NCBI GenBank assembly: GCA_035221665.1 | Contig: CM069135.1 | Coordinates: forward strand, 100,316,001-100,380,000 | Origin: Okamejei kenojei | Lineage: Eukaryota | Length of the DNA stretch: 64,000 nucleotides | Reading direction: 5' to 3' | Shown here: piece after piece, positions 1,945 through 60,615 of the stretch | Layout of the letters: each line of letters begins with the position of its first letter | How positions within the stretch are numbered: position 1 is the first letter of the stretch | The notes under the pieces: generated by a model | The model's input: the letters and a program-made list of their open reading frames with translations, nothing else | The model's database searches: none | What the model was told of the DNA's origin: nothing | Position numbers and translations under genes: made by a program

Positions 1945-2395
1945 CAACTGAGAAGGTCTCGAGGGTCTCGACCCGAAACGTCGTCATTCTATCTCCTTTC
2001 GTCTCCTTAGATGTGCTGCTGCACCCGCCTGAGTTTTCTCCAGCTTTTTGTGTACCCTCGATTCTCCTCCAAGGTTCCTTCTTTAAAACTTTGTCTACTC
2101 CACTGCGATATCTCCTCAGGGTAGAAGTTCTCCTCCTCCCTACGGAAACCTCGACCACGTCGCCAGCCCTTAGATGCTGCTGCACCCGCTGAGTTTCTCC
2201 AGCTTTTTGTGTACCCCCTGGTCTAAAAGGTTATTTGATAATGTACAACAGGCACTGAAAGAAATGTTACTGCTGCAAAGAAGGACAAAGCTGGTAGTGC
2301 TAAAAATGAAGACACAAAGTGCTGGAGTACTTCAGCGGACCAGGCATTTTGTGTCTTTTTTTCTAAACCAGCATCTGCAGTTCTTTGTGTCTACT
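1945..2395. mobile_element. Cluster of Penelope-derived terminal repeat fragments
   Basis: gggtctcgacccgaaacgtc; two copies of gatgctgctgcacccgctgagtttctccagctttttgtgtacc; collapsed palindromic copy at ~2305-2395. Confidence 0.65.
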
Positions 2396-2539
2396 GGCAG
2401 TGCTCAAGTTATTTCAGACAGGATCATGGAGAAATATCTCAGCATCCTGTTGTTTCTTCAGTAAGTGCAGTTTGATTTCACTAACTCCGTTTGAGGGTTT
2501 ACCAGGGTGTCCAGTCTCATCAACATTTCTCCTTCCCTT

Positions 2540-2822
2540 TAGACTTTAGACTTTAGAGAAACAGCATGGAAACAGGCCCTTCGGCCCACCGAGCCTGCGA
2601 TGACCAGCGGTACACTAGCACTATCCTACACAGTAGGGACAATTTACAATTTACAGAAGCCAATTAACCTACAAGCCTACACATCTTTGGAGTGTGTGGG
2701 GGAAGCCGGAGCACCTGGAGAAAACCCACGGGGTCACAGGGAGAATGTACAAACTCCGTACAGACAGCACCCGTAGTTGAGATTGAATCCAGCAACTCTA
2801 CCGTTGAGCCACTATGCTGCCC
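2540..2822 (-). mobile_element. HE1-like SINE
   Basis: Reverse complement of the SINE consensus with a (TCTAAAG)n-type tail. Confidence 0.85.
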
Positions 2823-2829
2823 GAGGAGA

Positions 2830-3372
2830 TTCAGTATGTCATCAAATACGTGATCAAGATTCTCCAGGTGCACGGTAGAGAGCATATCGACTGGTTGCAC
2901 CATAACATGGTTCAGTAACTCAAATGCCCAGGAACAAAGAAGGGTGCAAGAAGTGGTGGACATTGCCTGGAGTATCTGACCTCCCCACCATCGAAGAGAC
3001 ACACAGGAGGTGCAGCTCAAAAAGGCAGATAATATCTTCAAAGATCCACACCACCCAGGCCTCGCTCTCCTGTCACTGCTTGCATTGGAACCAGATACAG
3101 GAGCCTGAAAACCATGGCCACCAGGTTCTACCCAGCAATCATCAGGCTTGCATAACACCAACCGCTACCTCAGCGATCATGGCCCACTATGGACTTTGGT
3201 TTTGCATAGTTATGGTCTGGTTATTTAGTGTTACTGATTATTACTTTATTGCATTAACATTGAATATTTATTTGTGTGTTATTAGTTAATGAGCCAGTAA
3301 AACTGGAGCAAATAAGAATGTCATTTTTCCGTGATCAGTACATATGACAATTAAACACTCTTGACTCTTGAC
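2830..3372 (+). mobile_element. Rex/Babar-type LINE 3' fragment (degenerate)
   Basis: Remnants of RCTVESI.TGC..TWF.N..AQE.RRVQ.VV and KDPHHPG. 3' end catatgacaattaaacactcttgactcttgac. Confidence 0.7.
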
Positions 3373-3423
3373 TTAATGTTGTTGCTCTGATACTGTTCAA
3401 TCTCAAATAATTGTCTAGAAGAG

Positions 3424-4045
3424 CAGGGGTTGGCAACCTGCGGCCCGTAACCCGAAATCATCCCGCCCGCAGGCCTATTTTTTTTCCCGTAATTATCCAG
3501 CCTGCAGACTTCCGTCATCTCCGGTATCTCCCGGGCCCAAGGCCGTGGCACCCAGGCACGGTGACTCAAGGACGCAAGGAGGCCTGCGCTGGCGGCCGCA
3601 ATGGCGGAGCCGCCGAGGGGCGAGCAGTGCCAAGCGCTGAGCAGCTTCGAGCGCCAAGCGGCAAGCGCGGCGAGCTCTGGCTTTACCACGTCCTGCGCAA
3701 AGCCGCCGGCACGGCCGCGCACCTTCTGTGTCTGGGCTTCACTGTCGGGATCGGGGTTGTCAATAGGCCGGAGACGAGTGAGTGTGAGTATTTGAGCCAC
3801 CGCCTTCAGGACTGAGCCAAGGCATGGTCCGTAGGTGCGCTGTGTTCGTGAGCGCCCGTAGCTAGGGGCCAGTGCTCCAGGTGGTGTCCTTGAAGGGGCG
3901 GGATCTATGTGAACACGTGATTTGATGCCTGCCTTCTGGGGTGGGATGGGGGCGGGATCCATGTGAACACATGATAGATGTGGCCCGCCATCTACTCACA
4001 GACATGCGTCCTGGCCCCTACGCCGAACAAGGTTGCCAACCCCTG
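3424..4045. mobile_element. hAT-like non-autonomous element (MITE, 622 bp)
   Basis: Perfect 16-bp TIRs CAGGGGTTGGCAACCT / AGGTTGCCAACCCCTG. Flanks gtctagaagag / gtctagag resemble an NTCTAGAN 8-bp target. GC-rich interior. Confidence 0.85.
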
Positions 4046-4049
4046 GTCT

Positions 4050-4450
4050 AGAGTCATAAACATAGAGTCATAAGAGTCATTGAGTCTCACAGCATGGAAA
4101 CAGGCCCTTCAGCCCAACTTGCCCACACTGGCCAACATGTCGCATCTATTCTAGTCCCTCTTGCCTGCATTTGCCCCATATCCCTCTAAGCCGATCTTAT
4201 CCATGTACCCATCGTAATGTTTCTTAAACGTTGGGATAGTCCCTGCCTCAAGTACCTCCTCCTGCAGCTCGCTCCATACACCCCCCACCCATTGTGTGAA
4301 AACGTTACCCTTTGGGTTCAGCTTAAATCTACCCCCCCCCCCCCCCACCCCTCCCCACACTAAACCAATGTTCTCTGGGTTCTCGATTCCCTTACTCTGG
4401 GCAAAATTAACTGTGCGCCTACCAGATCTATTCATCTCATGACTTTGTAT
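4050..4450 (-). mobile_element. CR1 (HER1-like) LINE 3' end
   Basis: Minus strand gives FTQWVGGVWSELQEEVLEAGTIPTFKKHYDGYMDKIGLEGYG, the typical CR1 ORF2 C-terminus, plus the 3' UTR. Confidence 0.8.
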
Positions 4451-6523: not shown

Positions 6524-6761
6524 GATTTATCTGTACACTGTAAATGGATCGATTGTAATCATGTATTGTCTTTCTGCTGACTGGTTAGCACGCAACAAAA
6601 AGCTTTTCACTGTATCTTAGTACATATGACAATAAACTGAACTGAGAGGAAAAAAATCTAACAGGAAGTTGAGGGGCCACGGTTACACACAGAGGGTGGT
6701 GGGTAGGTGAAATGAGCTGCCCAAGGAGGTAGTTGAGGATACATTAACAATATTTGTTATT

Positions 6762-7655
6762 TGTTATTTGACTTTAGGAGAGCTCCCCCTCCCCTCACCC
6801 CACTCACCATCAACAGCACCACAGCCACCACATCTTTGGAGTCTTTTAAGTTCCTGGGAACCATCATCTCCAAGGACCTTAAGTGGGGAGGCTACCATCG
6901 ACCCCACAGTCAAAAAGGCACAACAGAGGATGTACTTCCTACGGCAGCTGAGGAAGCACAATCTGCCACAGGCAGTGATGGTCCAATTCTATACGGCCAT
7001 CGTAGAGTCTGTTCTCACCTTCTCCATCATGGTCTGGTTTGGCTCAGCTACCAAGCTCGACACCTGGAGGTTGCAGCGAATTGTCCAATCAGCAGAGAAG
7101 GTTATTGGCTGCAACCTTCCCTCCATTGATGAACTGTACACTGCAAGGGCCAGGAAGCGAGCGGGTGAGATCATCTCTGACCCCTCTCATCCTGGCCACA
7201 AACTCTTTGAATCACTTCCCTCTGGAAGGCGACTCCGGATTGTCAAAGCTGCCACAGCCAGACATTGAAACAGTTTTTATCCACGAGTAGTTGCTCTACT
7301 CAACAGCCAAAAATCTGTAGCCTCCCTTTGATCTGGTATTTTGTTGGTTCACATGCTTGATCAATAGTGTTTTATCAGTAATATTTTATTATTATAAGGC
7401 AGGTACGGGATACTGAGTTGGATGATCAGCCATGATCATATTGAATGGCGGTGCAGGCTCGAAGGGCTGAATTGGCCTTACTCCTGCACCTAATTTCTAT
7501 GTTTCTATGTTTCTATGTTTCTATTATTAATGTTTAGTGTTTTCTGAGTCATTCGTAACTGTCACTGTATGTCATGATGTCATGTTGTTACTTGTGGGCG
7601 GAGCACCAAGGCAAATTCCTTGTATGTGAATACTTGGTCAATAAACTTACTTACT
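6762..7655 (+). mobile_element. Rex/Babar LINE, RT C-terminal part and 3' UTR
   Basis: FKFLGTIIS, KKAQQRMYFLRQLRK, FYTAIVESVLTFSIMVWFG, DPSHPGHKLFESLPSGRRLR. (ACTT)n tail at ~7645-7655. A CR1 tail is inserted at ~7395-7522. Confidence 0.85.
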
Positions 7656-9031: not shown

Positions 9032-10910
9032 CATAGAAACATGGAAACATAGAAAATAGGTGCAGGAGTAGGCCATGCGGCCCTTCGAGCCTGCACCGCC
9101 ATTCAATATGATCATGGCTGATCATCCAACTCAGTATCCTGTAGCTGCCTTCTCTCCATACCCCCTGATCCCTTTAGCCACAAGGGCCACATCTAACTCC
9201 CTCTTAAATATGGCCAACAAACTGGCCTCAACTACCTTCTGTGGCAGAGAATCCCACAGACTCTCTGTGTGAAAAATGATTTTCTCATCTCGGTCCTAAA
9301 AGACTTCCCCCTTATCCTTAAACTGTGACCCCTTGTCCTGGACTTCCCCAACATCGGGAACAATCTTCCTGTATCTAGCCTGTCCAACCCTTAAGAATTT
9401 TGTAAGTCTCTATGAGATCCCCCCTCAATCTTCTAAACTCCAGCGAGTACAAGCCGAGTCTATCCAGTCTTTCTTCAAATAGCAGTCCTGCCATCCCAGG
9501 AATCAGTCTGGTGAACCTTCTCTGCACTCCCTCCATGGCAAGAATGTCTTTCCTCAGATTAGTCTGTGGCCTCACCAAGACCCTGTACAACTGCAGTAGA
9601 ACCTCCCTGCTCCTATACTCAAATCCTCTTGCTATGAATGCCAACATACCATTCGCTTTCTTCACAGCCTGCTGCACCTGCATGCCTACTTTCAATGACT
9701 GGTGTACCATGACACCCAGGTCTCGTTGCATCTCCCCTTTTCCTAATCAGTCACCATTCAAATAATAGTCTACTTTCCTGTTTTTGCCACCAAAGTGGAT
9801 AACCTCACATTTATCCACATTATACTACATCTGCCATGCATTTGCCCACTCACCCAGCCTATCCAAGTCACCTTGCAGCTTTCTAGCATCCTCCTCACAG
9901 CTAACACTGCCCCCCAGCTTCGTGTCATCCGCAAACTTCGAGATGTTGCATTTAATTCCCTCGTCCAAATCATTAATATATATTGTAAATAGCTGGGATC
10001 CCAGCACTGAGCCTTGCGGCACCCCACCAGTCACTGCGTGCCATTCTGAAAAGGACCGTTTACTCTACCCTTTGCTTCTGTCTGCCAGCCAGTTCTCTAT
10101 CCACATCAATACTGAACCACCAATACCGTGTGCTTTACGTTTGTATACTAATCTCTTGTGTGCGACCTTGTCGAAAGCCTTCTGAAAGTCCAGATATAAC
10201 ACATCCACTGCTTTCCTTATCACTCTACTAGTTACATCCTCAAAACATTCCAATACGATTCGTCAGACATGATTTACCTTTCGTAAATCCATGCTGACTT
10301 TGTCCAATGATTTCACCACTTTCCAAATGTGCTGCTATCCCATTTTAAATAACTGACTCTAGCATTTTCCCCACTACCGATGTTAGACTAACTGTCTGTA
10401 ATTCCCGTTTTCTCTCCCTCCCTTTTTAAAAAGTGGGGTTACATTAGTACCTCCAATCCTCAGGAACTACTCCAGAATCTAAAGAGTTTTGAAAAATTAT
10501 CACTAATGCATCCACTATTTCTGGGGCTACTTCCTTAAGTACCCTGGGATGCAGCCTATCTGGCCCTGGGGATTTATCGGTCTTTAATCCATTCAATTTA
10601 CCTAACACCACTTTCCGGCTAACCTGGATTTCACTCAGTTCCTCCATCTCATTTGACCCGCGATCCCCTGCTATTTCCGTCAGATTACTTATGTCTTCCT
10701 TAGTGAAGACAGAACCAAAGTAGTTATTCAATTGGTCTGCCATGTCCTTGTTCCCCATGATCAATTCACCTGTTTCTGCCTGCAAGGGACCTGCATTTGT
10801 TTTAACTAATCTTTTTCTCTTCACATATCGATAAAAACTTTTGCTGTCAGTTTTTATGTTCCCTGCCAGTTTTCTTTCATAATCCATTTTCCCTTCCCTA
10901 ATTAAGCCCT
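9032..10910 (-). mobile_element. CR1 (HER1-like) LINE, 5'-truncated ORF2/RT pseudogene
   Basis: [66 protein letters not shown]. (TTCTATGT)n-type tail. Inserted into a Penelope terminal repeat (ccttca on both sides). Confidence 0.92.
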
Positions 10911-11589: not shown

Positions 11590-11885
11590 GCAGCAGCGGC
11601 AAAAAATTAACCCTTGCATTCCCTCTCTCTCCATCCCTTCCCCACCCTAGTCGTCCTACTAGTTACACTGCCGTCCGCTCATTATCATCTTTTCCACAGC
11701 CAACAATGGACCATTGTGGGCCCCACCTTTCCCTGATCATCGTTGTTCTTTTCATACCTTTCATTCATCTGTTTTCTGTAACTTTTCATACCTCTAGTTT
11801 CCCTCTCCCCATACTCTCAGTCTGAAGAAGAAGCCTGATCCACTGAGTTACTGCAGCACTTTGTGTCTATCTTCAATGTAAACAA
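11590..11885 (+). mobile_element. Penelope 3' UTR/terminal fragment
   Basis: CT-rich UTR ending ctcagtctgaagaag...ctgagttactgcagcactttgtgtctatcttc. Confidence 0.6.
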
Positions 11886-11998: not shown

Positions 11999-12298
11999 GC
12001 AGGATGGTGCAGCAGTAGAGTTACTGCCTTACAGCGCCAGAGACGCGGGTTTGATTCTGACTATGGGTGTTGTCAGTGTGGAGTTTGCACGTTCTCTCTG
12101 TGACCGTATGGCTTTTCTCCAGGTGCTTCGGTTTCCTCCCGCACTCCAAAGACGTGCGAGTTTGTAGATGGATTGGTTTCTGTAAATTGTTCGTCGTGTG
12201 ATGCATAGAACTAGCCTACGGGTGATCGGTGTGGACTCGGTGGGTCGAAGAGCCTGTGTCCATGCTGTATCTCTAAACTAAAACCAAACTAAACTATA
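11999..12298 (+). mobile_element. HE1-like SINE
   Basis: Full head, core and tail with (CTAAA)n. Confidence 0.85.
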
Positions 12299-12302
12299 CT
12301 AA

Positions 12303-12397
12303 GTCTGAAGAAGGGTTTTGGCCCGAAACATTGCCTATCTCCCTCGCTCCATAGATGCTGCTGCACCCGCTGAGTTTCTCCAGCATTTTGTGTACCC
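12303..12397 (+). mobile_element. Penelope terminal repeat with hammerhead-like motif
   Basis: gtCTGAAGAagggttttggcccGAAAcatt followed by gatgctgctgcacccgctgagtttctccagc. Confidence 0.7.
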
Positions 12398-12869
12398 TAA
12401 AACTAAACCCTAGCTTATATCCAATACCAGTATCTTGACGTACTTTTTTTTATCACATAACAGGATTGGGAGAAGGAGCAGACATTCTGCAAAATGATAT
12501 CTTAATCACAGGTTTGCGTAGATTGTGACAGTTTCTCTCTCAAGCTGTGTGACTGCATCGAGTCACACTTCAGCAGGATAACTGCAGAGGCAGCAGTGGG
12601 ATAGTGCAATCTGTACCATCACAGGGGGTCCAGAGCGCATCGGTGAAACGGGACCAACACAATAGTAATAAGTGTTTCAAGGCACAAGTGATCCTTGCAT
12701 GACGGGCGCACTTGCTGTTAATTTCCAGTGTGAAATTCTCCATCAGTGCCACGCATGTTGAGCAAGTGAGAGGCAGACGGATATGGAGAGGAGGGGGGTG
12801 GTGGTGCCATGGTGCAGAGAGAGATCGCTGGAAACTGATTGCCTTCTACTCAGAAAAGGGTTGAGTGTG

Positions 12870-19860: not shown

Positions 19861-20153
19861 AACAAAGTGTCGTGCCATGGTTTGACATATCAACGAGCAA
19901 CATCTCACATTTGTCAGAGTTAAATTCCATTTGCCATTTCTTGGCCCACTTTGCCGACTGATCTGGATCCTGTGGTAAACTTTGATATCCTTCCTCAGTG
20001 TCCACTATACCACAAATGTTGGTGTCATCTACATATTTACTAAAATGTCAACTAACAACAGTGAATCCTGCGGCACTTCACCGATCTCCAATCAGAAAAA
20101 CAATCCTCCGCAACTATCCTTTGACTCCTTCCTCAAAGCTTGAATCCTATTGT

Positions 20154-20319
20154 GTAAGAAGGAACTGGATTACACCGAAGATAGACGCAAAGTGCTGGAG
20201 TAACTCAGCGAGTCAGGCAGCATCTCTGGAGAAAAAGAATAGGTGACGTTTCGGGTCGAGACCCTTCTGCAGACCGTCTGAAGAAGTGTCTCGACCCGAA
20301 ACATCACCTATTCCTTTTC
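20154..20319. mobile_element. Palindromic Penelope-derived mini-element with 11-bp TSD
   Basis: Head-to-head ...cccttctgcagac c gtctgaagaag... AATCCTATTGT at 20143-20153 and 20320-20330. Sits within an old CR1 fragment. Confidence 0.8.
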
Positions 20320-21890: not shown

Positions 21891-21962
21891 TTAAAATAAT
21901 TATGTTGGACAGCCAAATATTCAAGTCCAAGCTGCTTCTCTTCTATTAGGAGGGTATTTAGC

Positions 21963-22796: not shown

Positions 22797-23290
22797 AGTT
22801 GCACCATGGAAAGCGTACTGTCGGGTTGCTGCATGGCATGCTTTGGGAACAACTCTGCCCATGACCGTAAGAAATTGCAAAGAATTGTAGATGTAACGCA
22901 GTCCATCACACAGACCACAGTTCCCACCATTAACTCCATCTACATATCAAGCTGCCGTGGAAAAGCAGCCAATTTAATCAAAGATAGACAAAAGTGCTGG
23001 AGAAACTCAAGCGGGTGAGGCAGCATCTATGGAGCGAAGGAAATGGGCAACATTTCGGGCTTAGACTGAAGAAGGGTTTTGGCCCGAAACGTTGCCTATT
23101 TCCTTCGCTCCATAGATGATGCCTCACCCGCTGAGTTTCTCCAGCACTTTTGTCTACCTTCGATTTTCCAGCATCTGCAGTTCCTTCTTAAAAATGTAAT
23201 CAAAGCGTTGTCCCAGCCCAGCCTGCTGCTCCCGCCCAGCAGAAGGTACAGAAGCTAGAGAGCGTGCATCACCAGGCTCAGGAAAAGCTT
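22797..23290 (+). mobile_element. Rex/Babar fragment interrupted by a palindromic Penelope mini-element (~22983-23192)
   Basis: ESVLSGCCMACFGN...KKLQRIVDV...KAANLIK. taatcaaag is duplicated around the insert. Confidence 0.7.
23066..23093 (+). ncRNA. Putative minimal hammerhead ribozyme motif (Penelope-associated)
   Basis: CTGAAGA-A-GGGTT TT GGCCC-GAAA-CGTT. Core nucleotides intact, local stem I poor. Confidence 0.5.
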
Positions 23291-25079: not shown

Positions 25080-25312
25080 AGAAACAAAGAACTGCAGATG
25101 CTGGTTTATACCAAAGATAATGCTGGAGTAACCAAGCGGGTCAGGCAGCATCTCTGGAGAAAAGGACAGGTGACGTTTTGTGTCGGGACCTATCTTCAGA
25201 CATGACTCTGAAAAAGGACCTGAAGAAAGGTTCCGACCCGAAATGTCACCGATGCTTTACATCCAAAGATGCTGCCTGGCCCACTGAGTTATTCCAGTAC
25301 TTTGTGTCTATC
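25080..25312. mobile_element. Palindromic Penelope-derived mini-element
   Basis: Inverted arms around tcttcagac...ctgaagaaaggttccgacccgaaatgtcacc. Confidence 0.75.
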
Positions 25313-25854
25313 TTTAACATTGTATGAATTACCCAATAACGTCAAGAATACTTCACAGCGAATCATCTCAGTGCACTGGGTGTGTTCAACACAGTTTTTT
25401 CCTAACAATCTGCCACATCTTTACCTGTAAGGCCAGAGATAGTCCTAAAGGCTTCTCGTTACTCATTGCTTGTGCCCAATGTTCAGAGTTGCAGATTGGC
25501 ATGCCTACAAGTACACTTTTAAAGGGCTTTGCGCACAAAGTCAATGCAACTCAGCCAACTTACTGCCTGCCAAACACATAGTCAACCATCAACAGAAAAC
25601 AACAGACACAAAGACCCAGGAGTAACTCAAAGGGACAGGCAACATCTCTGGAGAACGTGGATGGGTGTTTCTTCAGACTGATTGCCATAACGGGGAGAAT
25701 GCTGGAAGAGAGGTGGGGGTGGGACAAAGCCAGGCATGTGAGAGATGGACAAAATGTGTAGGAAGGTACTGCAGATGCTGGTTTAAATCGAAGGCAAACA
25801 CAAAATGCAGGGGTAAATCAGCGGGACACGCAGCATCTCTGGAGAGAAGGAATG

Positions 25855-27254: not shown

Positions 27255-29632
27255 TTACTCTATGACTGTGATTCTATAACTGATCATTTTTAGATTTAGG
27301 TTTGGGTTTAGTTTTATTATTCACGCGAGTACAGTGAAGAGCTTTGTTTTGCATGTTAACAGATCAGGTATATCATACACAAATATAATCGTCAAACTTT
27401 AGAGCAGATGGGAAGATACAGAGCGCAGAATATAATTCCCAGCATTATACTGCATTGTGGCACATCAGTTCCACAGACAGTCCAATGTCCACAATGGGGT
27501 GGAGGTGAATCGGATGGTACCCCAGCTTATGGAAGGACCGTCAGAAGCCACAACAATCTGACGTAGAGAATGCTAAAGTCCTAAAACCTGCTGTGTAAAG
27601 AAAGTAATAAAGCTTGGAGACTGTGCCCCTTCTAGATCAGCATCAATGTCAGCATTTGCTGTGAGGAAAACAATAAAATATGTCAAAGGTATGCAATCAA
27701 AATGAATAGTAATAAAGCTTGAGAAGAGTGTCTCCTAAAGCACCTGAGCGAAGGGATCCCTGAACACCATTCAAATCTGTGCAAACAAAAAAAAGTCCCA
27801 GGCTTGTAACATGTTGAGGAGCTGTGCTGTATTTTTGTTGACACCTCCTTAAACCTACATAAAAGTCGCGGCAGCATATTACACTCGACTAAACTGATGC
27901 GGTGGCGACGGCAGCCAGTTGAATGTGAGCCAAGTTTATCTGCCCCCTGGCTCTTGTTCCTATTCAGCTATTCAGCCATTGCAAAGAGAGAGAATATCTT
28001 TGTGCGTCAACGCATTCTAATTTGCAGCCAAACCAAGATGCAAATTTAATCCTTCATTGCTAACAAGGAGATTTTCAAGACAAAATCAGGACAGGTACAA
28101 TTTTCATTGTGCATTAAAGAAGTGTCAAAATCCCCTCCATAATTGTAAGAGTCCATATATATTAATGTAAAATAAAAAACAGGAACTTTTGTTTAATGTA
28201 TTATGCATGAATGGGATGTTCAATAGCCAGACATGGAACACAATTTACGTAGAGTGCAGGAAAGACCTCAATATCTAATTTTGGAACAATTATTGTTGCA
28301 GTTGTTATGAAATTTTCCCTAATTCTGGAACACAGCGATGAATGGAATAATTCACAACTTCATATATGAGGCAGATGGTATGACAGGGTCCAGTCAGAAG
28401 CAACGTTAATGACAGCAAATGCCTTTTGAATACAACCCCCTGGCATGGCGTTGAAAGCACAGGAAGACTATGAATAATTACTATGGGGTGCTAATGAGCA
28501 AGTCATAGGTTACCCCATAGCTCAATTTATCTTCCAGCAAACTCAATTCAGTAATTAACTGATTGCAGCATCTTTGAATGGCTCCATGTAGGTTCCAGGT
28601 AACAGCACTGACTAAGTCTGAGCAGGGGACAGGAGACGCATGACGTGAAGTTATCAGTCTCCCACTGATCTTTTCTACATGCTTTCATGGGTGGAGGCAG
28701 AGGTGCACCAGTCCTCTTGGCATTAACATGGAGGCCAGCAGCTTCCAAGATGATACTGCACTTGTTATCCCGGAGGGGGTTAACAATTCGCAATTATTTT
28801 CTCCCGTGTTGTATAAGGCGCAATTTAGTAAATTCACTGATCTTCATCTCCTTGGGTTTCCCACTGTTGAACGATCATCTAACCTCGATGATCATGTCAC
28901 CAGGGTTTCTTATATTCTGGTTGGTCACCTCTGGCCCCTGCCCTCACTCGCCACAAAGTTTGACGTTCAGATCATCTTCTCGCTCATAGAGAATATATTT
29001 GGTCATCGGTCCCATTCCTGGCCTGGAGATTTGCTCCCTTCTCACAAAGTATGGAATTTTGATCTCCAATCTCACCTTGCGATAACCCCATATTGGAATC
29101 TCCTCCATTCCTACACCCTCAGGCATAGAGAGCATGTGTACAAGCCTGGTACCAGAGCACCCACACAGCCAGCCAAACACAGGACTGACCAAAGTAATCC
29201 AGCCAATAAGTCGAACAGTCTCAGTCTTGTCACTAGCACTGCCAACTTCTAGAAAGCTTGCCATGCTGATCAATCATTCAACATGTGTCTTGCTGTACAT
29301 TACATCGCACGGTTCCCACTCTCAGCTGCCAAGGGTAATTTGTCAGTATCAAGCATCAGTCAGTAGCTCCCATTTTATAGATAACTGGCCCAGGTGGATT
29401 AGACATCTTTGACCTCTCCCCTCTTGCTATTCATGAGTGACTTTCACACAAGAGCTTGAGCATCACACAAGCATCTCTCATCAAGTCATTATATGTTTAA
29501 TGTTTGCTCGTTGGGAACTTTACGAACTTACTGTGCATGCTCTGGGTTCCAAAGGACACGGCAACCTTCAAGGCCCATCGCAAGCAAAATCACCGCAACA
29601 AGGCTCAGCTGAGGCAGAGTCACATATTCAGT

Positions 29633-29660
29633 CTGATGAAGGGGTTCCACCCGAAACGTC
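29633..29660 (+). ncRNA. Putative minimal hammerhead ribozyme motif (Penelope-associated)
   Basis: gt-CTGATGA-A-GGG GTTCCA CCC-GAAA-CGTC-ac. Canonical CUGAUGA/GAAA core and GUC triplet. Part of a Penelope terminal repeat at 29628-29728. Confidence 0.55.
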
Positions 29661-30911
29661 ACCCATTCCTTCTATCCAGCAATGCTGCCTGTCCCGCTGC
29701 GTTACTCCAGCATTCTGTGTCTATCTTCACCACAAATTCAACCCGGATCCACAGCTTATAACCTAAACCTGGAGTAAAGTGTTTACCTCAGAGCAGAGTG
29801 AAAGCAAACAGTCCAGGCTGTTATTTCATCGCAATTAAAACCACATAAACCAAAAAGTCATTTATACCTCTAGGAGTAGAGTGTGCAATAATAAGTCAAT
29901 AACCTGAGTCATCGTAGTCCTTTTATAATTGTGTATTTGGAATAATAACTTCAGGGCTTTAACATTTGTAATATCCATTCTGTCAGTTAGTAAATCAGCA
30001 GTTGGCTTAAATTTATTAGGGACAGACAAACACCAATTGTAATCAGCCTGAACTTTTTTGTTATTCCCATTGAGCTGTTGATTTAATAGAGTGATAAATG
30101 CAACGGTACCCATTCATCATGGTTTTACTGCAGCAGTGGATATTTTAGAACTTGGCATTGCCTTTCCAGAATAAAACTTTGAAGCACAAAATTAATTGCC
30201 CATTATTCAAGTAACTAAAGATTCAGTGTCCTAATGTTATATTTAATTTTCTGTACAGAAAGAGTATCGCAGCAAGCCCAATATTTTTAGTGTAGGAAGG
30301 AGCTGCAGATGCTGGTTTACACTGAAGACAGACACAAAATGCTGGAGTAACTCAGCTTGGGCAGCATCTCTGGAGAAAGGGAATAGATGGCGTTTTAGGT
30401 CGGAACCCTTCTTCAGGACTGGTATTTGTTGTTCCTCCTTATTTCCCATGAGTTCTTGAACTGCAGTAATCCTTTTGGCGAAGGTATTTTTTACGATACT
30501 ATTGGGTGGTGAGTTTGGGGATTTTGATCCATTATCAATGTAGGAACAACAATATATTTCTAAGTCAAGGTAACATGTGACTTTACTATCCATGTACCTC
30601 CCTCTACCATACCCTCTGGCAGCCCATTCCACATAGGAACAACACTCAGTGTGTGAAGGTTGCCCCTCAGGTCCCTTGTAAACCTCTAGTTTTAGACTGC
30701 TCTATCCTAGGGAAACGATTGTGGATATTCACCTTATATATGCCCCTCATGGTTTTATATAAAGTCACCCCTGGGCCTCTGGGAAAACGACCAAGCCTAT
30801 CCAGCTTTTCCTTATAACTCAAACCCACCAGATCTGGTAACATCCTTGTAAATCTCCTTTGTATCCTTTCCAGTTTAATAACACAATTCCTGTAGCATGA
30901 CGACTATAATT

Positions 30912-32460: not shown

Positions 32461-32909
32461 AATTTACCATGACCTGCAGGTTCAGGAACAGCTTCTTCCC
32501 AACAACATATCAGGCTATTGAACACTATAAACGGCAACTAAACTTCCAACAACTGGCTCGGTTGCACACTTGGAACTTCGGGCTTATGTTTTGTTTTGAA
32601 CTCATTTTTTTTTTTTTATCAATTGCACTTTTTGTAAATTATGTTACCTATTGAGTGCTATTCTTACAGACTACGGATGCTTACAGCTATTATGATATTG
32701 CAAGTGAGAATGCAATTTTTCTATTTTGGTACATATGACAATTAAACACTCTTCATTCTTGACTTTAGAATCTTTTTGGATTCTCCTTTACCTTGTCTGC
32801 CAAAGCAATATTATGTTTCCCAACTGATTTCCCTCTTTCCCCTTCACCCCTATACTCCTCAGGGGAGTTACTTGATCCCAGCTTCCTGTACCTAATATAT
32901 GCTTCCTCG

Positions 32910-33142
32910 TGTAGCAAAGAACTGCAGATGCTGCCTGTCCCGCTGAGTAAGTCAGCGGGACAGGCAGCATCTCTGGAGTGAAGGAATGGATGACGTTTCG
33001 GGTCAAGACCAGTCTGAAGAAGGGACTCAACCCGAAATGTCACCCATTCCTTCTCTCCAGAGATGCTGCCTGTCCCGCTGAGTTACTCCAGCATTTTGTG
33101 TCTATCTTCGGTTTAAACCAGCATCTGCAGTTCCTTCTTACA
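32910..33142. mobile_element. Palindromic Penelope-derived mini-element
   Basis: Inverted arms; CTGAAGAAGGGACTCAACCCGAAATGTC. Confidence 0.75.
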
Positions 33143-33614
33143 CAAAGTTCATGCATAAACAGTAAAGAAAAAGGATAGTTCTGATCATCGCCAAAGCAGA
33201 GATGCAATGATGTATATTAATCTCTACTTAATTTCAAGATTTGTTTTGCCGGTTTTTCCAACCATTTAAGAACCATTATCCTTCCTTTTCCATGCTTTGG
33301 ATACCAAATAACCCATTGTTGCTGGCAGGGAGATCTAAGACCACTCCATGGAGCCGTGCCCTGGCCCTCTGCGTAAGTGTTTGAGTGCCAGGACAGAGAG
33401 GTGTTTCTATTCCCCCTACTCCCAATGGCAAGATACCAGCTGTGCACAGCATCTCCACACCACAGCACGCCAGAATCACTTTCTTCCATGCAAATCCAAG
33501 GATCCAACATTCACTCAAGTTTTATAATTCTGTGTAGAAAAACATTCAGGGCTTCTGACAGCCCAGAAGGTGCTCCACCTAGCCAACACACACCACTCAC
33601 AATTTCCTAATAAA

Positions 33615-34055
33615 AGGGAACTGCAGATGCTGCTTTGTACCAATGATAGACACAAAGTGCTAGAGTAACTCAGCAGGTCAGGCAGCATCTCTCGAGCAAC
33701 TGCACGGGTGACGTTTCTGGTTGGGACCCTTCATCAGATTGATTGTAGTCGGGGGAGCGGGGAGAAGAAGAGGAAGTGAAAAGAGCCAAGATGAATCACA
33801 GCCCGCAACAGATGACCTCAGGGTGATGGAGGTGTCCCCTGATAGACGGATTGTTGGACAAAATCTGCCGAGCAGGGAACCACCTCACCTGACGTCATCT
33901 GTTGCCGGCCGTGATTTGTCCTGTTGCCTCGGTTTTTTTCTGCGGTCCCCCTACTACAATCAGTCTGAAGAAGGGCCCCCACCCGGAATGTCACCTATCC
34001 ATGATCTCCAGAGATGCTGCCCGGCCCGCCGAGTTACTGCCGGCACTTTGTGTCT
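33615..34055. mobile_element. Penelope relic with inverted terminal repeats
   Basis: Minus-strand CTGATGAAGGGTCCCAACCAGAAACGTC at ~33710-33738 and a plus-strand copy at ~33965-33992. Confidence 0.7.
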
Positions 34056-39026: not shown

Positions 39027-39033
39027 CCAGTAA

Positions 39034-46965: not shown

Positions 46966-46975
46966 GATAGGCTTG

Positions 46976-50999: not shown

Positions 51000-51194
51000 T
51001 GTGTAGGATGGAAGTGCAGATGCTGGTTTAAACCAAAGATGGGCACAAAATGCTGGAGTAACTCAGCTGGTCAGACAGTATCTCTGGAGAAAAGGAATAG
51101 ATGACGTTTCGGGTGAAGCAGGGTCTCGACTAGTCGTTGTCTCCAGAGAAGCTGTCTGACCCGCTGAGTTACTCCAGCTTTCCGTGTCTACCTT
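51000..51194. mobile_element. Palindromic Penelope-derived mini-element with 15-bp TSD
   Basis: TGGCAGATGTAGGAG at 50985-50999 and 51195-51209; inverted arms. Confidence 0.8.
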
Positions 51195-53076
51195 TGGCAG
51201 ATGTAGGAGGCTTCAATAACTTTCCACAGAGGGCTGAAGATTAAGTCTGCTCAACTGTATCGGCTTTCTGTAGGGAGAACTGCAGATGCTGGTTTATACC
51301 AAAGATAGACACAAAATGCTGGAGTAACTCAGCAGGTCAGGCAGCATCTCTCGGGAAAAGGAATAGGTGACGTTTCCGATTGGAACCCTTCTTCAGACAG
51401 TATACTCTTTGATTGGGGGCATAGGAGAGAGAATGGAAACGGTGATAAAAGAGTTTCTGCTTTGTGTTACGAGGTACTGCATGACATTTGAGATGGAATT
51501 TTCTTTCACAGCAATGTTAACTAATATTCTGTCCCCATATCTATATGATGCGAAGAATTTTCATTCTGCATTCAGTGGGTACATAATAATTTCAGCTTGA
51601 CCGTTTAATGAAGGCACATGGAACAAGTACTTAATTAAGGATATGTACTTGAAGCATTAGAGTGGACCGTGTCCCGGCACTGCCTTGACTCTAATCTCCA
51701 TTTAAGTGATACATTCCACAATTCTTGTACTTTTTTTGACAGAAATATCATGCAATGTACAGAAATGTAAGTATTGTTCATGATTTATTTTAGCTGAAAC
51801 ACGCACTGGATTTGAATAATTGATGTCTGTGTAGTGGGTGTCCTCATTGGCATTCTGTATGTGGTGATGAATGGGGCGTTGTGAAAGATTCTAAACTTAA
51901 ATGTAACATCCTCAGTTGCGTGCATCAATAATCCGCCTCGCCTGAGCCTTGAGTTTCTCTCTCAGGGGAACCAGCTACTGACTCCCTTCTTCACAGAAAC
52001 CTAATTTTCATAAGTCTTTGGAGCAGAATTGGGCCATTTGGACCATTGAGTCTCCTCCGCCATTCTACCATGTCTGATCTATCTTTCCATCACGACCCCA
52101 TTCTGCTTTGACACCCTTACTAAACAAGAATCTGTCAATCTCCGCTTTACACCTCACGCTGCCTCGGCAAGGCCACCAGCATAATCAAGGATGAGTCGCA
52201 CCCTGGCCTCTCCCTCTTCTCCCCTCTGCAAAGACTTGTCCCACACCAGTCATTCCCTCTTCTCCTTACTCCCACCTGACAGAATGTACACAGGCTTCTT
52301 CTCCTCTGTTGCCAGACTTCTAAATGGCCCTTCCATAAGCTAGGGTACTGTCCAATTCACCTCTACCCCATCTTAGACATTGGACTTTGTCCATGGAACA
52401 GATACACTACAATGCTAAGAACTATATTCTGCACTTTGTATCTTCCCCTTTGCTCAATCTATTGTAGTGAGTTTGACTTGACTGTATCATGTATCTGATC
52501 TATTTGGATAGCATGCAAAACAAAGCTTTCCACTAACTCTCGGTACACATGACAATGTTGAACCCAAATCTAAATTCACCATGTTTTAGGCTGTAAAATA
52601 CTTGCCAATTAAGCCCCAAAATATTTTTTGATATGTTATATATTTTCACCTGGAACTAATTCAGTAATCATATGTCCAAGCAATGTTTGTTGAAGTTACT
52701 TCAGCAGTACTTCTTCAAAAGTGCTGATAGTATCAAAACTCCATGAATTATATTGAGAGGGTTCAGGGACTAAATATTCCAGGGTCAGAGTACTGAATGA
52801 GTACCTCACAGCAGGGAGATATATCAATTTAGTTTTGGTTTCCTTTTTTTATGTTAAGGGCTTGATAACATTGCAGTAACTTTTTAAGGTTAATATGACA
52901 TGGCTGGTATAACTGGAAAATGAAAAATAAGCAGATGCAGGAAACATGAAATAAAAACAGAAAATGCCAGAGACACTCAACAGGCCAGGCAGCATCTGCG
53001 TAGGAAAAAATACAGGTAATGTTTCAAGTCAATGATCTTTCACCTTACATGATTAAACCTCAGTAAGTTTTGTTTA

Positions 53077-53660
53077 GACACAAGGAACTGCAGACAATGA
53101 TTTGCAAAAATAGGCACAAAGTGCAGGATTAACTCAGCGGATCAGACAACATCTCTGGAGAACATGGATAGGTGACATTTTGGTTTGGGTACCTTCTTCA
53201 GACTGATTGCCAGAGTGAAGCCATGTGCAAAATGGCACCCCATATTACACTTGGGTACCTAATGGTCCGAACACTGAATTTGCCAATTTTTAGTTACCTA
53301 CCAACAACATCTCTCCCTCCATGTTTCTCCATCTCTTCCCTGTGCCCCACTTGTATGCGCACCCACTTCTCTCACTGTCTTGCCTCCCTTTCCACTTCCC
53401 ATATTCCTGTCCATGGCTTCATATTTTGCATCTCCTCTCCTTATCTCAATGATCTTCCTCCCATCTCTAGCTTTCTACCTCCCCCTCTTCAGCTCACTTG
53501 TATCCACATATCACTTGCCTGGCTTTGTCCTGCCTGCACCTCGCTTCCAGTTTTCTCCCCCCTACTAGAGACAGTCTGAAGAAGGGTCCCGACCCGAAAT
53601 GTCACCTATTTTCTCGAGAGATGTTGCCTGACCCCCTGAGTTACTCCAGCACTTTGGGTC
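53077..53660 (+). mobile_element. Penelope element 3' end with inverted upstream terminal repeat
   Basis: CQSEAMCK..HLGT..NGPNTEFANF (GIY-YIG C-terminus remnant), CT-rich UTR, and terminal repeat with CTGAAGAAGGGTCCCGACCCGAAATGTC (53576-53603). Inverted copy at 53077-53205. Confidence 0.75.
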
Positions 53661-54009
53661 TTTATGTTTCGTTTAACAAGGAGAAAAATACTGGATATTT
53701 ACCATTTATCAAAGATAATCAATGCTATTAGCAACAAATCAAACAAATGAACTACATCTCAACTCCTAGTCTCAAGCTAACTAAAACAATAATTAATTCT
53801 CTGTTTGCAGATGTTTTCACAGCAGGTACATGGATGTCACGATGCTGCCAGTGACTCAATACAGATTGAAAATACAAAATTCATCAACCGTATCCTTTCA
53901 CCTTATGCTGCTTAACTGCATGGTGAGAAATATCGAGCTTTCCTGCACAGATGTTCTTCTGAGTCTTTGGAAAAGGGCAGAGGGCTGCATGGTGCTTCAG
54001 AGGCCGATG

Positions 54010-54285: not shown

Positions 54286-54384
54286 GAGCTGACCAAGCTA
54301 TTTGCACTCCTCGTATTTTCCTCATAACCTGTAAATCAACCCTCTTCAAGTCTGATTACTTTAGAAAGCCCCTCAGGAATGTCA

Positions 54385-55612: not shown

Positions 55613-58019
55613 CTGTTATGGAGGGCATAGAGAGTGTAGATAGCAAGGAACAGTTTTCTTTTAGCAGAAATGTCTATGACCGGAGCACACATGTTTAAAA
55701 CACGAGCTAAGAGCTGTGGACAATATTCACGGACGATTTTTTAATGAGTATCTGAAATCCGGAATTCACTGCCTGTGGGAATAGTGGGGGTGTTTAAGAA
55801 GTATTTAGATAAATACTTGAAACACTGAGACATGGAAGGCAGATAGGCCAGTGGTTGGAGATGGAATTTGTATAGATCAATACCCAATGGTTGGCACAGG
55901 CGTGGTGGGCCGGAGGGCCTGTGTCTGTGCTCTGTGAGTCTATATCTTTAAAAAAAATGATAGAAGGCCCAGGTGCCTTGTAAAGGGATGGCAGCGCTGC
56001 AGCAGTTCATGCTACAACCTCATAGTTTCAGGATCCTGAGTTTAATCGTGAGCTCAGGTGCGATCGGAGCGTTGCTTGCACATTATTCTCCATTGTTGTC
56101 CCCATGACTCCATTGTTTCCTCCAGGTGCTCTAGCATGTCCCAAAGACATTCTGGTAGTTTACTGTCAACTTAAGGGTATGCTAGAAGCAAAAAGAATCA
56201 AAAGTGCAATGATGGTGAACTTTGAGACAGACTAAGCAACCTATTGATAGAAGCCATGGGATTGAGGAAATATTTTCCAGAAATAAAGATAACGTAAAAG
56301 GAATAAATGGGTTTACTTCCCAGAACCTGACACAGCCCCGATGGGCCAAATGGCTCCTTGTGTGATAAGACAGACAGGTGAAGACAAAGGATTCATTCTT
56401 CTTGGTACAGAAATTGATAACTGGGAAACATACGTTTAAATCAATTGGTAAAAATATGAGATGGGATTGAGGAAATATTTTAATATCCAAACTAGAGTGA
56501 AGATCTGGAACTGACTATTGAAAGAGGTGGTAGATGCACTAACTCTAAGCACCTTTAAGGGTTAAAAAAAATTGAACTGCTGGAGGGACTCAGCAGCTCC
56601 AACAACATGTGTGGAGGGAAATGAACAGATGACGCCTCAGGTCAGGACAATTCTTCAGACTTTTGGCCCAACCTAGACTCTTCCCTCCCCAGATGCTGCC
56701 TGACCTGCTGAGTTCCTCCGGCACTTTATTTATGGCGAAGGCTCCAACATCTGGTGTTCCTTGCGTCTCTACCTTTAAGGGATACTTGATAAGCGCTTGA
56801 AAAGCCCTAACCTGCACGCATTAGCATGGGCAAGATGAACTGAATGATGAACTGAAAATCATTGATTTTGTATTTAGGTTTTAGTTTTAGTGCTACAGTG
56901 CGGAAACAGGCCCTTCGGCCCACCAAGTGCACGCCGACCAGCAATCATCCCGTACACTAGCACTATCCTACACACTAGGGACAATTTCATGTCCCTTTTT
57001 ACAAAGCCAAATATTCCCTAACCTTGAGTAACATATCCATTTATACTCCAAGATATGTGAAAATGTAACTTTCCTCATCCCTCTTATCCACCCTACAGCT
57101 TAAAATATAGTGTACTCTTATCTCCAAGCCCAAAGTATCTGACCACTCATTGAAATGGAATTATTCCTATGGAAGTAACAGTGCCCATATTTACTTGCCA
57201 GCCAGAATCATGTGTGGTGCTCGGGTTTAAGAACCCTAAATATACTTCTTCATGTGTGTAATGCGGGATATGGAAGCAAATAATATCAGCCTTCTCTTGT
57301 TCCAGCATGACTGAGATTAACCACAGCATGAAGTAGGAATAAAGACTAGAGTTTTATGGTTGTTCCACTTAATATGCAATGAGCAAAAATGCACAGATGG
57401 GACTGTTTAACGCAAATTCTTAAAAAGGGTTTAGAGAGAAAGATGAGAGAGGCAAAGGTTAATGGAGATGTGCAGGGCAAGTGTTTTTGTTTTCCATGGA
57501 GGGTGGTGGGTGCCTGTAACACGCTTGTATGGTGGCTGTAGAGGCAGATAGAATAATGGCATTCAAGAGGCTTTTGGATAGGCACGTGGACATGCAGCGA
57601 ATGGAGGGATATGGATCAGGTGTAAGCACAGAAGATTTGTTTAACCAGGCATTGTGTTTGGCATGGACATTGAAGGCTGCAGGGTTCCTACGTTCCTATG
57701 TTCCTATACTGCTTTATCTTCAATGTTCTATGTTATTCGTAATAAAAAATAAGCTTAACATATCCCTTGGCATAGATAATGCATGGGGGAAAAAAAACAC
57801 AAGTGAAACACTCAGCGGTTCATGCTGCATCTCTGGAGGTCATGGTTAGGTGACATTTTGGATCAGGACCTTTTTCAAACCAATTGTAAGGGAGGAGGCT
57901 GGAAAAGAGGTGGGGGCACGACAATGCCCGACAAGTGTTAAGTGGAGGAAGGAACTGCAGATGCTTGTCAGTCTGAAGATCGGGTTCCGACCCAAAAGGG
58001 TTCACACCCGTCCGTTTTC

Positions 58020-58058
<39 letters not shown>

Positions 58059-58219
58059 TGCCTGACCCGCTGAGTTACTCCAGCACTTAGTGTCTATTTC
58101 AGTAATAGGTGGATACAGGGGAGGGGAGGGGGTTTGGGGTTTGATAGGGTGGTGGGAGGAGTGGGGGGCATGCACACACAGGAAGTTCTGCAGAATTAGC
58201 AGTCAACTCCAGAGTGCAA

Positions 58220-58412
58220 CAAAGGCAGAGTAACTCAGTGGGACAGGCAGCATCTCTGGAGAGAAGGAATGGGTTGAGACGTCTGAAGAAGGGTCTCGAC
58301 CCGAAATGTCACCCATTCCGTCTCTCCAGAGATGCTGCCTGTCCCGTTGAGTTACTCCAGCATTTAGTGTCTACCTTCGATTTAAACCAGCATCTGCAGT
58401 TCTTTCCTACAC
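58220..58412. mobile_element. Palindromic Penelope-derived mini-element
   Basis: Well-preserved right arm gtctgaagaagggtctcgacccgaaatgtcacccattcc...ccagcatctgcagttctttcctac. Confidence 0.8.
58283..58310 (+). ncRNA. Putative minimal hammerhead ribozyme motif (Penelope-associated)
   Basis: CTGAAGA-A-GGGTC TC GACCC-GAAA-TGTC. Perfect stem II; ACGT decayed to ATGT. Confidence 0.5.
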
Positions 58413-59196
58413 ATGGTTCAACAAATGCAGGTCAACATTAAATTTCAGCTTTCGTATGAAAGACAGCTGCAGAGTCAAAATAAGTAGTTCTCTTGTTGTT
58501 CTATGTCCCAATGTGGATGCAGCTAATCTACAGTACACAACAGTTGGCTTAATGGCCAACGAATTTGAATGGGGTTTTCTGGTATTCAACTACAAGAGGA
58601 CTGACAGCTGGCCACAACACTGCATTAACTCCAGATTTATCCTCTGGCCACCATCTTTGGACATCATTTAGTTTTGGCGAGAAATACAATTTTATTTCCC
58701 AATCTGCTAGCAGCTTTAGGTCAAATTTGTAGCCTTTTAAAACCAGGATTAAGTCTCCTTGAAACTTTTTGACTTCCACCCCCTTTCCCCAACGCTTCAG
58801 ATATTTTAGGCATGTTTTCATCACTTAAGTTTGGAAATGATAAATGAGTCAAGAGAGCGGGTGTTTGCAATAGAGAGGAACTTGGATTCCTTGGTGTTGT
58901 ATTCCTTCAGCTGTTCCAACGGACTTCTGCTGTAATTCCAGCAACTGTCTAGGGAAACAGTCCCAGAATGAGGCCTGGGCTTAGATTTTCCACAAGGTAT
59001 TGAGGGATGTGAAGGACACAGAGCTAGCGACGCAGAACAATGGTGGTAGGGCAGGGACCTGTTATTCTGCCAACTACTGCTTCCATATTGCCAGCAGTGG
59101 TGCCCAGCAGTGGAGGGCACTAGGAGGGAATTATAAGCCAGTGATCCTCATGTCTGTGGTAGGTTTAGTATTATTAATTAATTTATTATTAACAGA

Positions 59197-59478
59197 TTAG
59201 TTTAGAGATACAGCACGGAAACAGGCCCTCTCGTCCCTCCGAGTCTGCACCGACCAGCGATGCCCGCACATTAACACTACCCTTCACACGCTAAGGACAA
59301 TTTACATTTATACCAAGCCAATTAACCTACAAGCCTGTACGTCTTTGGAGTGTGGGAGGAAGCCAAAGATCTCGGAGAAAACCCTCATTTCACGTGGAGA
59401 ACGTACAAACTCCGTACAGACAGCACCCATAGTCAGGATCGAACCCAGGTCTCTGGCACTGTCTCCACCGTGCTGCCC
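59197..59478 (-). mobile_element. HE1-like SINE
   Basis: Reverse-complement match to the SINE consensus. Confidence 0.82.
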
Positions 59479-59904
59479 TTAAAGGTTGAAGAATGAAAGC
59501 TCAAAGAGAAACAAACGTTATATTGAGCATGATAATTGTGAAGGGAGGGTGTAAATGCATAATATGAAAACATGAGATATGACTTTTAAATGTGGCTGTA
59601 AGGAACATGTTGAATTGAACTTTCGTGAAAAGGAGTAGAAGTTGTGTTGAACCTAACCCTATGCAGACAAAGAATGGAAGAACAAGTAAGTTATCTGAAA
59701 GATGGATTCGGGCAAGATAATGAATAAAGGCAGCAGTTTGCAAGAGGGTCAAAGATAGACACAAAGTGCAGGAGTAACTCAGTAAAACTTGCTGGATTCT
59801 CCTACACTAACCCATTGGAAATCGATGAGGTGGAAAAGAGGACAACGTTAAGTGGCAAGCCTTACTGGTAACCTTCCACCAGGATGATTTGCCTCCTTTA
59901 CTGT

Positions 59905-60051
59905 GTCGGGAGGAACAGCAGATGCGGGTTTAAACCAAATAGATATACAAAAAACTGGAATAACTCAGCGGTCAGGCTGAGAAAAGGAAAAGAAGTAGGC
60001 CCAAAATACCATCTATTCCTTTTCTCCACAGATGCTGCCTGACCTGCTGTG
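59905..60051. mobile_element. Collapsed palindromic Penelope mini-element with 17-bp TSD
   Basis: TTTGCCTCCTTTACTGT at 59888-59904 and 60052-60068. Confidence 0.75.
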
Positions 60052-60615
60052 TTTGCCTCCTTTACTGTCATCTGTCCACCCACAATCCCACCTCCCTTGA
60101 TCTTGTCATAGCTCTTGCCTTGTCAGCTACCATTTAACTGCAAACACATGATAGGCATTGGGTCCTTGGCTGCTTCCCTCCATAGTGTTCACACACTAAG
60201 GGTCTACCTGATGGTTGACGTGAGTCTGGAGAAGGGCCACAACCGAAACGTCACCTATTCCTTTTCTCCAAAGATGCTGCCTGACCCGCTGAGGTACTCC
60301 AATATTTTGTGTCTATCTATGGGTCTACCAAAGTGGTTGGACCATTTGACCCTTGGGAGTCCATTGATCTCCTCTCTTTGATGAGGTCTACTGCATTACA
60401 GGAGAGGCTTTAATAGTGGTCTCCGTTGTCTCAGCTGAGGTTATTTCATTTTCTGCACTCGTTAACTTTTTGGATCCTCCCTTAGGAGTTGTGGTGGTGA
60501 AGATATGCGTGTTCTCCCCTGAAAAATTCAGAAAATGGCGGGGGACCCGATATTCCACCGGAAATCTGCCCTGTTCGGCAACAGTCCCTCTCCTCAGAAT
60601 AATAAAGGAGAGTTA

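Follow-up and report, generated by a model that had tools for sequence, protein, structure and literature searches.

Short motifs that resemble hammerhead ribozymes recur along 64,000 nt of the Okamejei kenojei genome (GenBank assembly GCA_035221665.1, contig CM069135.1, positions 100,316,001 to 100,380,000 of the forward strand; this whole stretch is called the window, and position 1 is its first nucleotide). The locus raises the question of whether these motifs act in host transcripts or are remains of the element that carried them. A sequence-only reading of the window had described an array of Penelope-associated minimal hammerheads, about one per 3 kb, that could supply dimer partners within one host pre-mRNA. 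We found 43 dispersed fragments of the pseudo-long terminal repeat (pLTR), at the 3' end, of what by its features is a Neptune-type Penelope-like retrotransposon, on both strands between 1962 and 60327. [quoted passage not shown] The pattern of insertions suggests that the copies were made from uncut RNA and would not act as ribozymes in host transcripts.

We identified the element from the sequence upstream of genomic repeat copies, where a pyrimidine-rich 3' untranslated region (UTR) is followed by a GIY-YIG endonuclease (EN), a cysteine linker, and a reverse transcriptase (RT). One full-length, degenerate element (L122) carries the motif in both flanking repeats, which are 117 bp long and 91% identical. 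A protein search led to a young subfamily, in which open frames are numerous and nearly identical. L178 and L179 each contain an open frame of 1,197 codons (1,185 aa from the first Met) with RT and GIY-YIG between two pLTRs. The pLTR direct repeats measure 898 bp at 99.8% identity in L178, 495 bp in L179, and 1,476 bp in L180, a 3,958-bp tandem, and the motif is present in both pLTRs of these three intact elements. Translation probably starts ~160 nt downstream of C3 of the motif. Pfam matched the young open reading frame (ORF) with RVT_1 (E 5e-6) and GIY-YIG (E 0.004), both scores being under the curated cut-offs. The frame also contains the motifs DKG, YLRYIDD, and LIY..YIG, a CX4CxxC linker between RT and EN at residue 1052, and a GIY-YIG domain of the CCHH type (CxxC between LIY at 1089 and YIG at 1102, His at 1117 and 1133). 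The protein homologues carry the RT plus further domains in common, and the sole named vertebrate homologue is from Chiloscyllium. A CX2-5CxxC linker between RT and EN is described as a feature of the Neptune clade, and EN+ Penelope-like elements with inverted, 5'-truncated copies and a tail of 30-40 bp at one end are also described (PMC8557442). These sequence features indicate that the repeat is the pLTR of a Neptune-type EN+ Penelope-like element; the assignment was made by the features listed in PMC8557442, and Nematis has a reduced linker too. The sequence-only reading had named minimal type I hammerheads associated with Penelope, with failure to map to Penelope termini as grounds for rejection, and this identification stood, as the repeat maps to both pLTRs of full-length RT + GIY-YIG elements.

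The ends of insertions provided the main evidence on their origin. An exact search with a 38-nt stretch downstream of the cleavage site returned 40,122 genome matches for the young subfamily. Of these, the first 100 were analyzed with no rows dropped, and every one lies within the initial 6 Mb of a single chromosome. Positions are counted from C3 (0). The 3' ends formed two classes ~33 nt apart, at ~+93 in 68 copies and at ~+126 in 32. The 5' ends were located at -7..+9 in 55 copies (43 of them at -4..+2), at +10..+18 in 8, at +31 in 4, and upstream of -7 in 33, and none fell at +26..+30. Stops per base were 4.9% at -7..+9, compared with 0.53% at +10..+25, 0.17% at -130..-8, and 0.22% further upstream. 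Among the 60 young copies outside an inverted context, 33 started at -7..+9 and none at +10..+31. The retained rows include two "-4" starts that run into the UTR of another subfamily (L247 and L277), two "+8/+9" starts that are alignment slips (L230 and L249), two L272 copies that duplicate L214/L215, and several breaks at -188..-235 located at a poly-C indel or a subfamily switch. An unbiased sample contained 114 copies that reach the core, comprising 53 edge starts (a few of which look like UTRs of rare subfamilies), 44 copies in inverted pairs, and 17 that extend upstream; the 5' start lay at model columns 31-39 in 8/175. In 16 of 33 solo edge copies, an exact duplication of at least 7 nt was detected whose end is no more than 10 nt away from the 5' end. 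In mixed-age copies, a flush duplication of at least 8 nt was found in 12/70 versus 0.3 in controls, and a stricter test gave an adjacent duplication in 5/60 versus 0 in the control. Among 68 head-to-head pairs, 36 joined a long to a short 3' end, 7 were long/long, 6 short/short, and 19 unclassified, and 12 of the 13 young pairs were long/short. A template cleaved at GUC before copying, as implied by the self-cleavage proposed earlier, would give short copies that begin at +28 without the core. The opposite was seen, with 0/100 starts at +26..+30, and an uncleaved template is thus favored.

These ends may be explained by analogy with the protein of the anole Poseidon element. In vitro, that protein initiates internally at two RNA sites that define the tail, it cuts and extends both DNA strands, and its principal template is uncleaved RNA; the ribozyme cuts only when the protein is present (PMC11167929). 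The skate element protein would likewise nick DNA and prime at two internal sites (~+93 and ~+126). Priming in the 5' pLTR of the transcript would produce the 95-130-nt copies, priming in the 3' pLTR would produce longer, 5'-truncated copies, and priming on both target strands would produce the head-to-head pairs. The transcript would start at about -4/-3, at the edge of the ribozyme, where the sequence fits the initiator pattern YYANWYY. An internal promoter without a TATA box has been reported in Penelope (PMC2377424). If the ribozyme cleaves at all, it would do so only with the element protein, and the molecules being copied would stay uncut; a role of the motif in protein-assisted cleavage at a later step is likely on the same analogy. 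We also offer a more detailed version, whose parts are to be taken together and which is possible while falling somewhat short of probable. The conserved 32 nt of the motif might double as start site and 5' end, so that strong-stop-like insertions of 95-130 nt would make up most of the ~1.2 million copies. With the transcript start placed on the hammerhead, a flood of copies resembling short interspersed elements (SINEs) might come straight from an autonomous element through uncleaved RNA. Likewise, a dimeric protein that primes two target strands at two internal sites might give rise to the long/short pairs.

We compared the motif between active elements and between inserted copies. The 32 nt from -4 to +27 were identical in the young L178 and two of three older copies, with 0/32 differences in the motif versus 26/100 downstream (p=0.0005) and 0/32 versus 25/103; for the third older copy the figures were 2/32 and 22/100 (p=0.06). 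The ORFs of the subfamilies were ~75-78% identical. Because the 32 nt are unchanged while the downstream sequence and the ORFs diverge, the comparison indicates that the motif is constrained in active lineages, to which recombination between subfamilies could contribute. In inserted copies, non-CpG changes in the core (121/1762) were comparable to those in downstream reference blocks (339/4430, p=0.31), catalytic CpG sites were more and not less decayed than reference sites (152/549 versus 164/731), and G12 was altered in 47/184 copies. A smaller sample of copies gave the same outcome. Inserted copies thus decay neutrally, and their core is not under purifying selection. Covariation in stem II, a check named beforehand, did not emerge, since compensatory double changes were at chance level, no more than CpG decay predicts. 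At the 10.1-11.1 pair, an A-T double change was present in 10/237, with 26 single changes to A and 57 to T. Subfamilies are told apart by their loops and by one-sided changes from U-A to U.G, seen at 10.4-11.4 and at 2.1-1.1. This test has little power because the source stem is nearly invariant.

We next consider the copies in the window. A profile hidden Markov model (HMM) of the repeat, built from eight window copies, refined once, and covering ~140 nt, matched the 43 fragments (23 plus, 20 minus) and nothing in shuffled sequence. Repeat units were ~95 or ~130 nt in size, with the hammerhead-like part at the 5' end. The core, defined as model column 8 or lower through the cleavage triplet, was spanned by 23 of the 43 fragments (13 plus, 10 minus), which agrees with the 20-25 copies claimed before. 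The sequence CTGA(A/T)GA-A-[stem II]-GAAA-CGTC was confirmed on both strands at the nine copies that had been singled out as best, and CpG decay and a 2-bp helix I were as then described. We applied a strict descriptor consisting of the core, G10.1-C11.1, a stem II of at least 3 bp, Watson-Crick pairing at 15.2-16.2 (the ACGU palindrome), and a 2-bp helix I, which gave no matches in five shuffles. Only one of the nine, and one copy alone in the window, has every element. This solo pLTR copy at 29629..29754 (+) has its core at 29633-29660, a 3-bp stem II, ACGU, a 2-bp helix I, a predicted cut at 29660/29661, and a predicted stem II probability in context of 0.12. Three others read AUGU and pass with a U.G wobble in the palindrome. 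They are the plus arm (33010-33146, core 33014) of a head-to-head pair at 32907..33146 with a minus arm at 32907-33015, a pLTR copy with 3' UTR upstream at 53572..53673 (+, core 53576), and the plus arm (58281-58415, core 58283) of a pair at 58183..58415 with a minus arm at 58183-58284. The palindrome has decayed to ACAU in a copy of a B-type subfamily at 12302..12401 (+, core 12305). Helix I is lost in the copy with its core at 23066, the plus arm (23063-23194, long 3' end) of a pair at 22972..23194 whose minus arm (22972-23066) has a short 3' end. The minus-strand copies among the nine are all broken. The minus arm of a pair at 20150..20319 (core 20245-20272) has A6>C at 20272, and the plus arm of that pair (core 20278) has a broken stem II and ACAU. 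The G10.1-C11.1 pair is broken in the pLTR copy at 33610..33740 (-, core 33710-33737), where G10.1 is opposite A at 33737, and in the solo copy at 51271..51399 (-, core 51369-51396), where it is opposite G at 51396. Since most of these copies are not intact, the figure of one motif per 3 kb is a tally of remnants; on the same strand, 1 (strict) or 4 (wobble allowed) motifs per 64 kb are usable. An Rfam scan of the window returned no hammerhead family among 15 matches at E<=5; the top matches were sub-threshold microRNA families, several of which coincide with the nine head-to-head pairs of the repeat. No RT/EN body of the element was found in the window except for a 44-bp UTR scrap at 11608-11651.

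The density of the repeat was then set against the genome. The window holds 0.67 fragments/kb, compared with 0.44/kb (bootstrap 0.36-0.51) for the 2.76-Gb genome, as estimated from 77 samples of 10 kb that were chosen evenly and together yielded 336 fragments over 769.5 kb. At least 7 repeat matches were present in 15 of the 77 samples. Repeats do lie on both strands across the window, as the sequence-only reading held, but at a density only ~1.5 times the genome mean, "array" overstates the case; the window is ordinary repeat debris. Extrapolation gave ~1.2 million repeat fragments genome-wide, and the 21 strict motifs in the samples correspond to ~75,000 (39,000-115,000). The strict descriptor was passed by 47/57 young copies that cover the motif.

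Folding was also predicted for single and paired units. Helix I has 2 bp, one of which is a U.G wobble in the young family, and position 2.3-1.3 is A/C in 173/192. For the young unit, the predicted stem II probability was at most 0.004, and the predicted dimer fold (-6.7 kcal/mol) lay 13 kcal/mol above the cofold minimum (-19.7 kcal/mol). The four window copies with strict or wobble motifs had predicted stem II probabilities of 0.12, 0.00, 0.99, and 0.03, with helix I at 0.002 or less in all. The hammerhead fold was not recovered when 106 copies were folded comparatively. According to these models, naked-RNA folding disfavors the ribozyme. At L178:2153-2280, the first core strand is predicted to pair over a long range with the tail end, so that the whole short unit forms a single closed domain; such a stem would sequester the ribozyme.

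RNA was examined in one raw poly(A) run, possibly from a different organism, of which ~6% of the reads were compared with three contig sets. Depth changed in a step of ~tenfold or larger at the motif edge, both strands were about equal, and loose ends were present at the motif edge and at both 3' ends. No pile-up of molecule starts or ends was detected in this run, the cut site included. This pattern is the one expected from read-through of genomic copies.

Several observations weigh against run-off at a transcript start as the source of the edge. The 5' ends spread over ~16 nt rather than falling on one base, and base -4 is the element's own C in 21/32 solo copies that reach -3; because this is above chance, many templates must have run past -3. 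An extra cap-derived G is weakly suggested (6/11 non-C, p=0.04), long 3' ends are not clearly commoner in short copies (24/67) than in long ones (8/33), and the start of transcription was not observed in the one RNA run at ~6% of reads. A start at +31, which is 3 nt beyond the cleavage site, was seen in four of the 100 young copies (3 of them independent), each belonging to an inverted pair. The conserved 32 nt do something in active elements that run-off leaves unexplained. Moreover, all 100 young copies come from one 6-Mb region of one chromosome, and the search design left out copies starting after +32. Since the ends are spread and often include -4, the main rival keeps the same element and the uncleaved template and ascribes the 5' cluster to stalling of RT, ~60% of the time, at structure or protein on the hammerhead of the 3' pLTR, with microhomology and a CAG-N-CTG quasi-palindrome located at the edge helping the joining. 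Such stalling, which we regard as rather doubtful, would account for the -7 to +9 spread of the 5' ends, whose modes are -4, -1, and +2, and for the C at -4 in those 21/32 copies. The predicted long-range stem between the first core strand and the tail end is also in its favor. The quasi-palindrome is the exact junction of several pairs (L190), and in several cases a duplication overlaps the element's first bases. By contrast, stem II itself contains few stops (0.53% per base at +10..+25), and edge stops are about equally frequent in copies with long (16/32) and short (39/68) 3' ends, though only the short ones meet the predicted stem.

The remaining explanations differ in where cleavage or processing would act. 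That dispersed copies dimerize through ACGU within one host pre-mRNA and cleave it, as first proposed, appears barely plausible. The ~75,000 strict motifs genome-wide (39,000-115,000), the presence of the repeat on both strands in poly(A) RNA of a related organism, and the low in vitro activity of dimeric minimal hammerheads (PMC4209133) speak for it. However, the window has a single strict copy, whose nearest wobble partner is 3.4 kb off in a head-to-head pair, and three of the six plus-strand copies cited for the proposal are in such pairs and would form long hairpins. The core shows no purifying selection, the predicted dimer fold lies 13 kcal/mol above the minimum, stem II is predicted at 0.00-0.12 in three of four window copies, and no read starts or ends are piled at the cut site. 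No host-gene Pfam match was found among the 150 of 195 low-repeat window ORFs scanned, and the long ORFs scanned in the window plus a 70-kb flank (70 of 283) gave retroelement domains only and no host exon; of natural frog dimers, 1/9 cleaved in vitro (bioRxiv 2026.07.22.740005). With few intact copies, neutral decay, and no host exon found among the ORFs scanned, the proposal of dimer partners in host pre-mRNA was not borne out. Alternatively, the short unit might stand on its own as a non-autonomous retrozyme or SINE, undergoing self-cleavage, circularization, and copying by the Penelope protein. Copies are mostly short, solo, and flanked by duplications, and animal retrozymes derive from pLTRs (bioRxiv 2026.07.22.740005), but this reading is very unlikely, given that no tandem arrays were found (one adjacent same-strand pair per 100 young matches, L233, with both cores incomplete), that units neither begin nor end at the cleavage site, and that short and long copies have the subfamily sequence in common. 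The edge could also be a 3' splice acceptor, short copies then deriving from spliced RNA with an upstream exon. All subfamilies seen have a pyrimidine tract and CAG ahead of the core, a mode at -1 among the solo 5' ends falls directly after AG, and an intron of D. virilis ends at helix I (PMC4209133). Splicing is nevertheless highly improbable here: duplications flush with the edge leave no room for a captured exon, edge copies share no upstream exon, the two genome matches to an ORF-end-to-motif junction pattern are both coincidental, and no GT..AG joint into the motif was found among the RNA joints listed.

The family resembles known systems in part. Minimal hammerheads with dispersed solo and opposite-strand copies and low dimer activity have been described in pLTRs, with an unpaired base and, in D. 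virilis, a 2-bp helix I (PMC4209133). The copies here likewise have the core CUGANGA/GAAA/UH, an extra base after A9, G10.1-C11.1, and a palindromic 15.2-16.2 without helix III; they occur in both pLTRs, mostly as solo copies, and have opposite-strand neighbors. Unlike those hammerheads, helix II here has 4 bp and a tetraloop rather than 7-8 bp, helix I, like that of D. virilis, has 2 bp instead of 4-5, and compensatory covariation is lacking. The ~75,000 strict motifs compare with ~4,000 in coelacanth and ~9,000 in Xenopus, counted with a different descriptor (PMC4209133), and the one supplement of that paper that was searched has no shark or skate entry. As in the anole Poseidon PAc, two internal initiation sites would bound the tail, both strands would be extended, and uncleaved RNA would be used; no RNA-seq ends lie at the cut site in either case (PMC11167929). 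By contrast, PAc belongs to the Poseidon clade and its ORF begins inside the ribozyme, whereas here the ORF likely opens ~160 nt downstream of C3, initiation would take place at ~+93 and ~+126, and the evidence comes from the genome rather than from biochemistry. Like animal retrozymes that lack long terminal repeats (non-LTR retrozymes), the short copies are pLTR-derived non-coding units with a type I hammerhead dispersed as monomers (bioRxiv 10.64898/2026.07.22.740005); by contrast, no tandem units with two intact cores were seen, and the short copies are not a family apart from the coding element. The available description of Neptune-clade elements (PMC8557442) does not mention 5' ends that cluster at the edge of the ribozyme, and no account of such clustering or of this cartilaginous-fish family was found in the literature searched (subscription papers and Repbase lay outside the search).

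Minimal hammerheads in Penelope ends were already known; the 5'-end clustering and an intact, recently active element are added here. These results bring genome-scale evidence to bear on whether the Penelope ribozyme cuts at all and, if so, at what stage. In tens of thousands of young insertions, the motif is retained entire and the insertion starts at the motif's 5' edge rather than at the cut site, a pattern that agrees in vivo with the in vitro finding on the anole element that the template is uncleaved RNA. In the cited work, the active full-length system is a Poseidon, and the intact 1,185-aa ORF with near-identical repeats would make a tractable Neptune-type element for biochemistry.

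Five further head-to-head pairs lie in the window. In that at 25082..25317, the minus arm has the long and the plus arm the short 3' end, and in that at 51000..51228, the arms are joined inside the stem II region. The pair at 56575..56766 is older and diverged, that at 59900..60054 is older and without an intact core, and the short pair at 2301..2388 consists of 3' fragments only. Elsewhere in the genome, short units are inserted in the RT or EN region of older element copies (L076, oriented 1269-1400, and L107, 2591), the L076 unit sitting within the RT gene of another copy. Five short units of mixed orientation are clustered at L177:16-285, each beginning in or near stem II. The 3' UTR of the young element (L178:5870-6108) looks chimeric, its first part resembling one older subfamily and the rest another, and the L178 sequence after the motif is of the type of the first older subfamily. 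The sequence suggests that this UTR arose by template switching between subfamilies.

Other repeats were observed in the window. A DIRS-type tyrosine-recombinase element lies in pieces at 37834-41909 (+), with an RT frame at 39034-40422 (RVT_1 E 4e-19) followed by phage-integrase-like frames at 40814-41293 and 41484-41909. An ALKBH8_N match at 6711-7265 (+, E 1e-14) is likely a C-terminal fragment of a long interspersed element (LINE) and not a host exon, because ALKBH8_N also follows an RT in L197. An abundant SINE family with a tRNA-like head spans 434-55614 (for example 12002-12190, 35244-35428, and 49111-49300, with minus copies at 19035-19287 and 36230-36482; families D3, D6-D9, D13, D14, and D17-D20), which may be akin to the V-SINE/HE1-type SINEs of vertebrates. 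Dispersed repeat ends with short TTTAG-type tandem tails (families D10 and D11, 2537-59235; for example 21957-22031 and 35428-35502) are probably LINE/SINE 3' ends. Finally, a long inverted repeat pair at 9034-9401 and 45040-45414, 36 kb apart and 90-95% complementary, represents two recent copies of one repeat.

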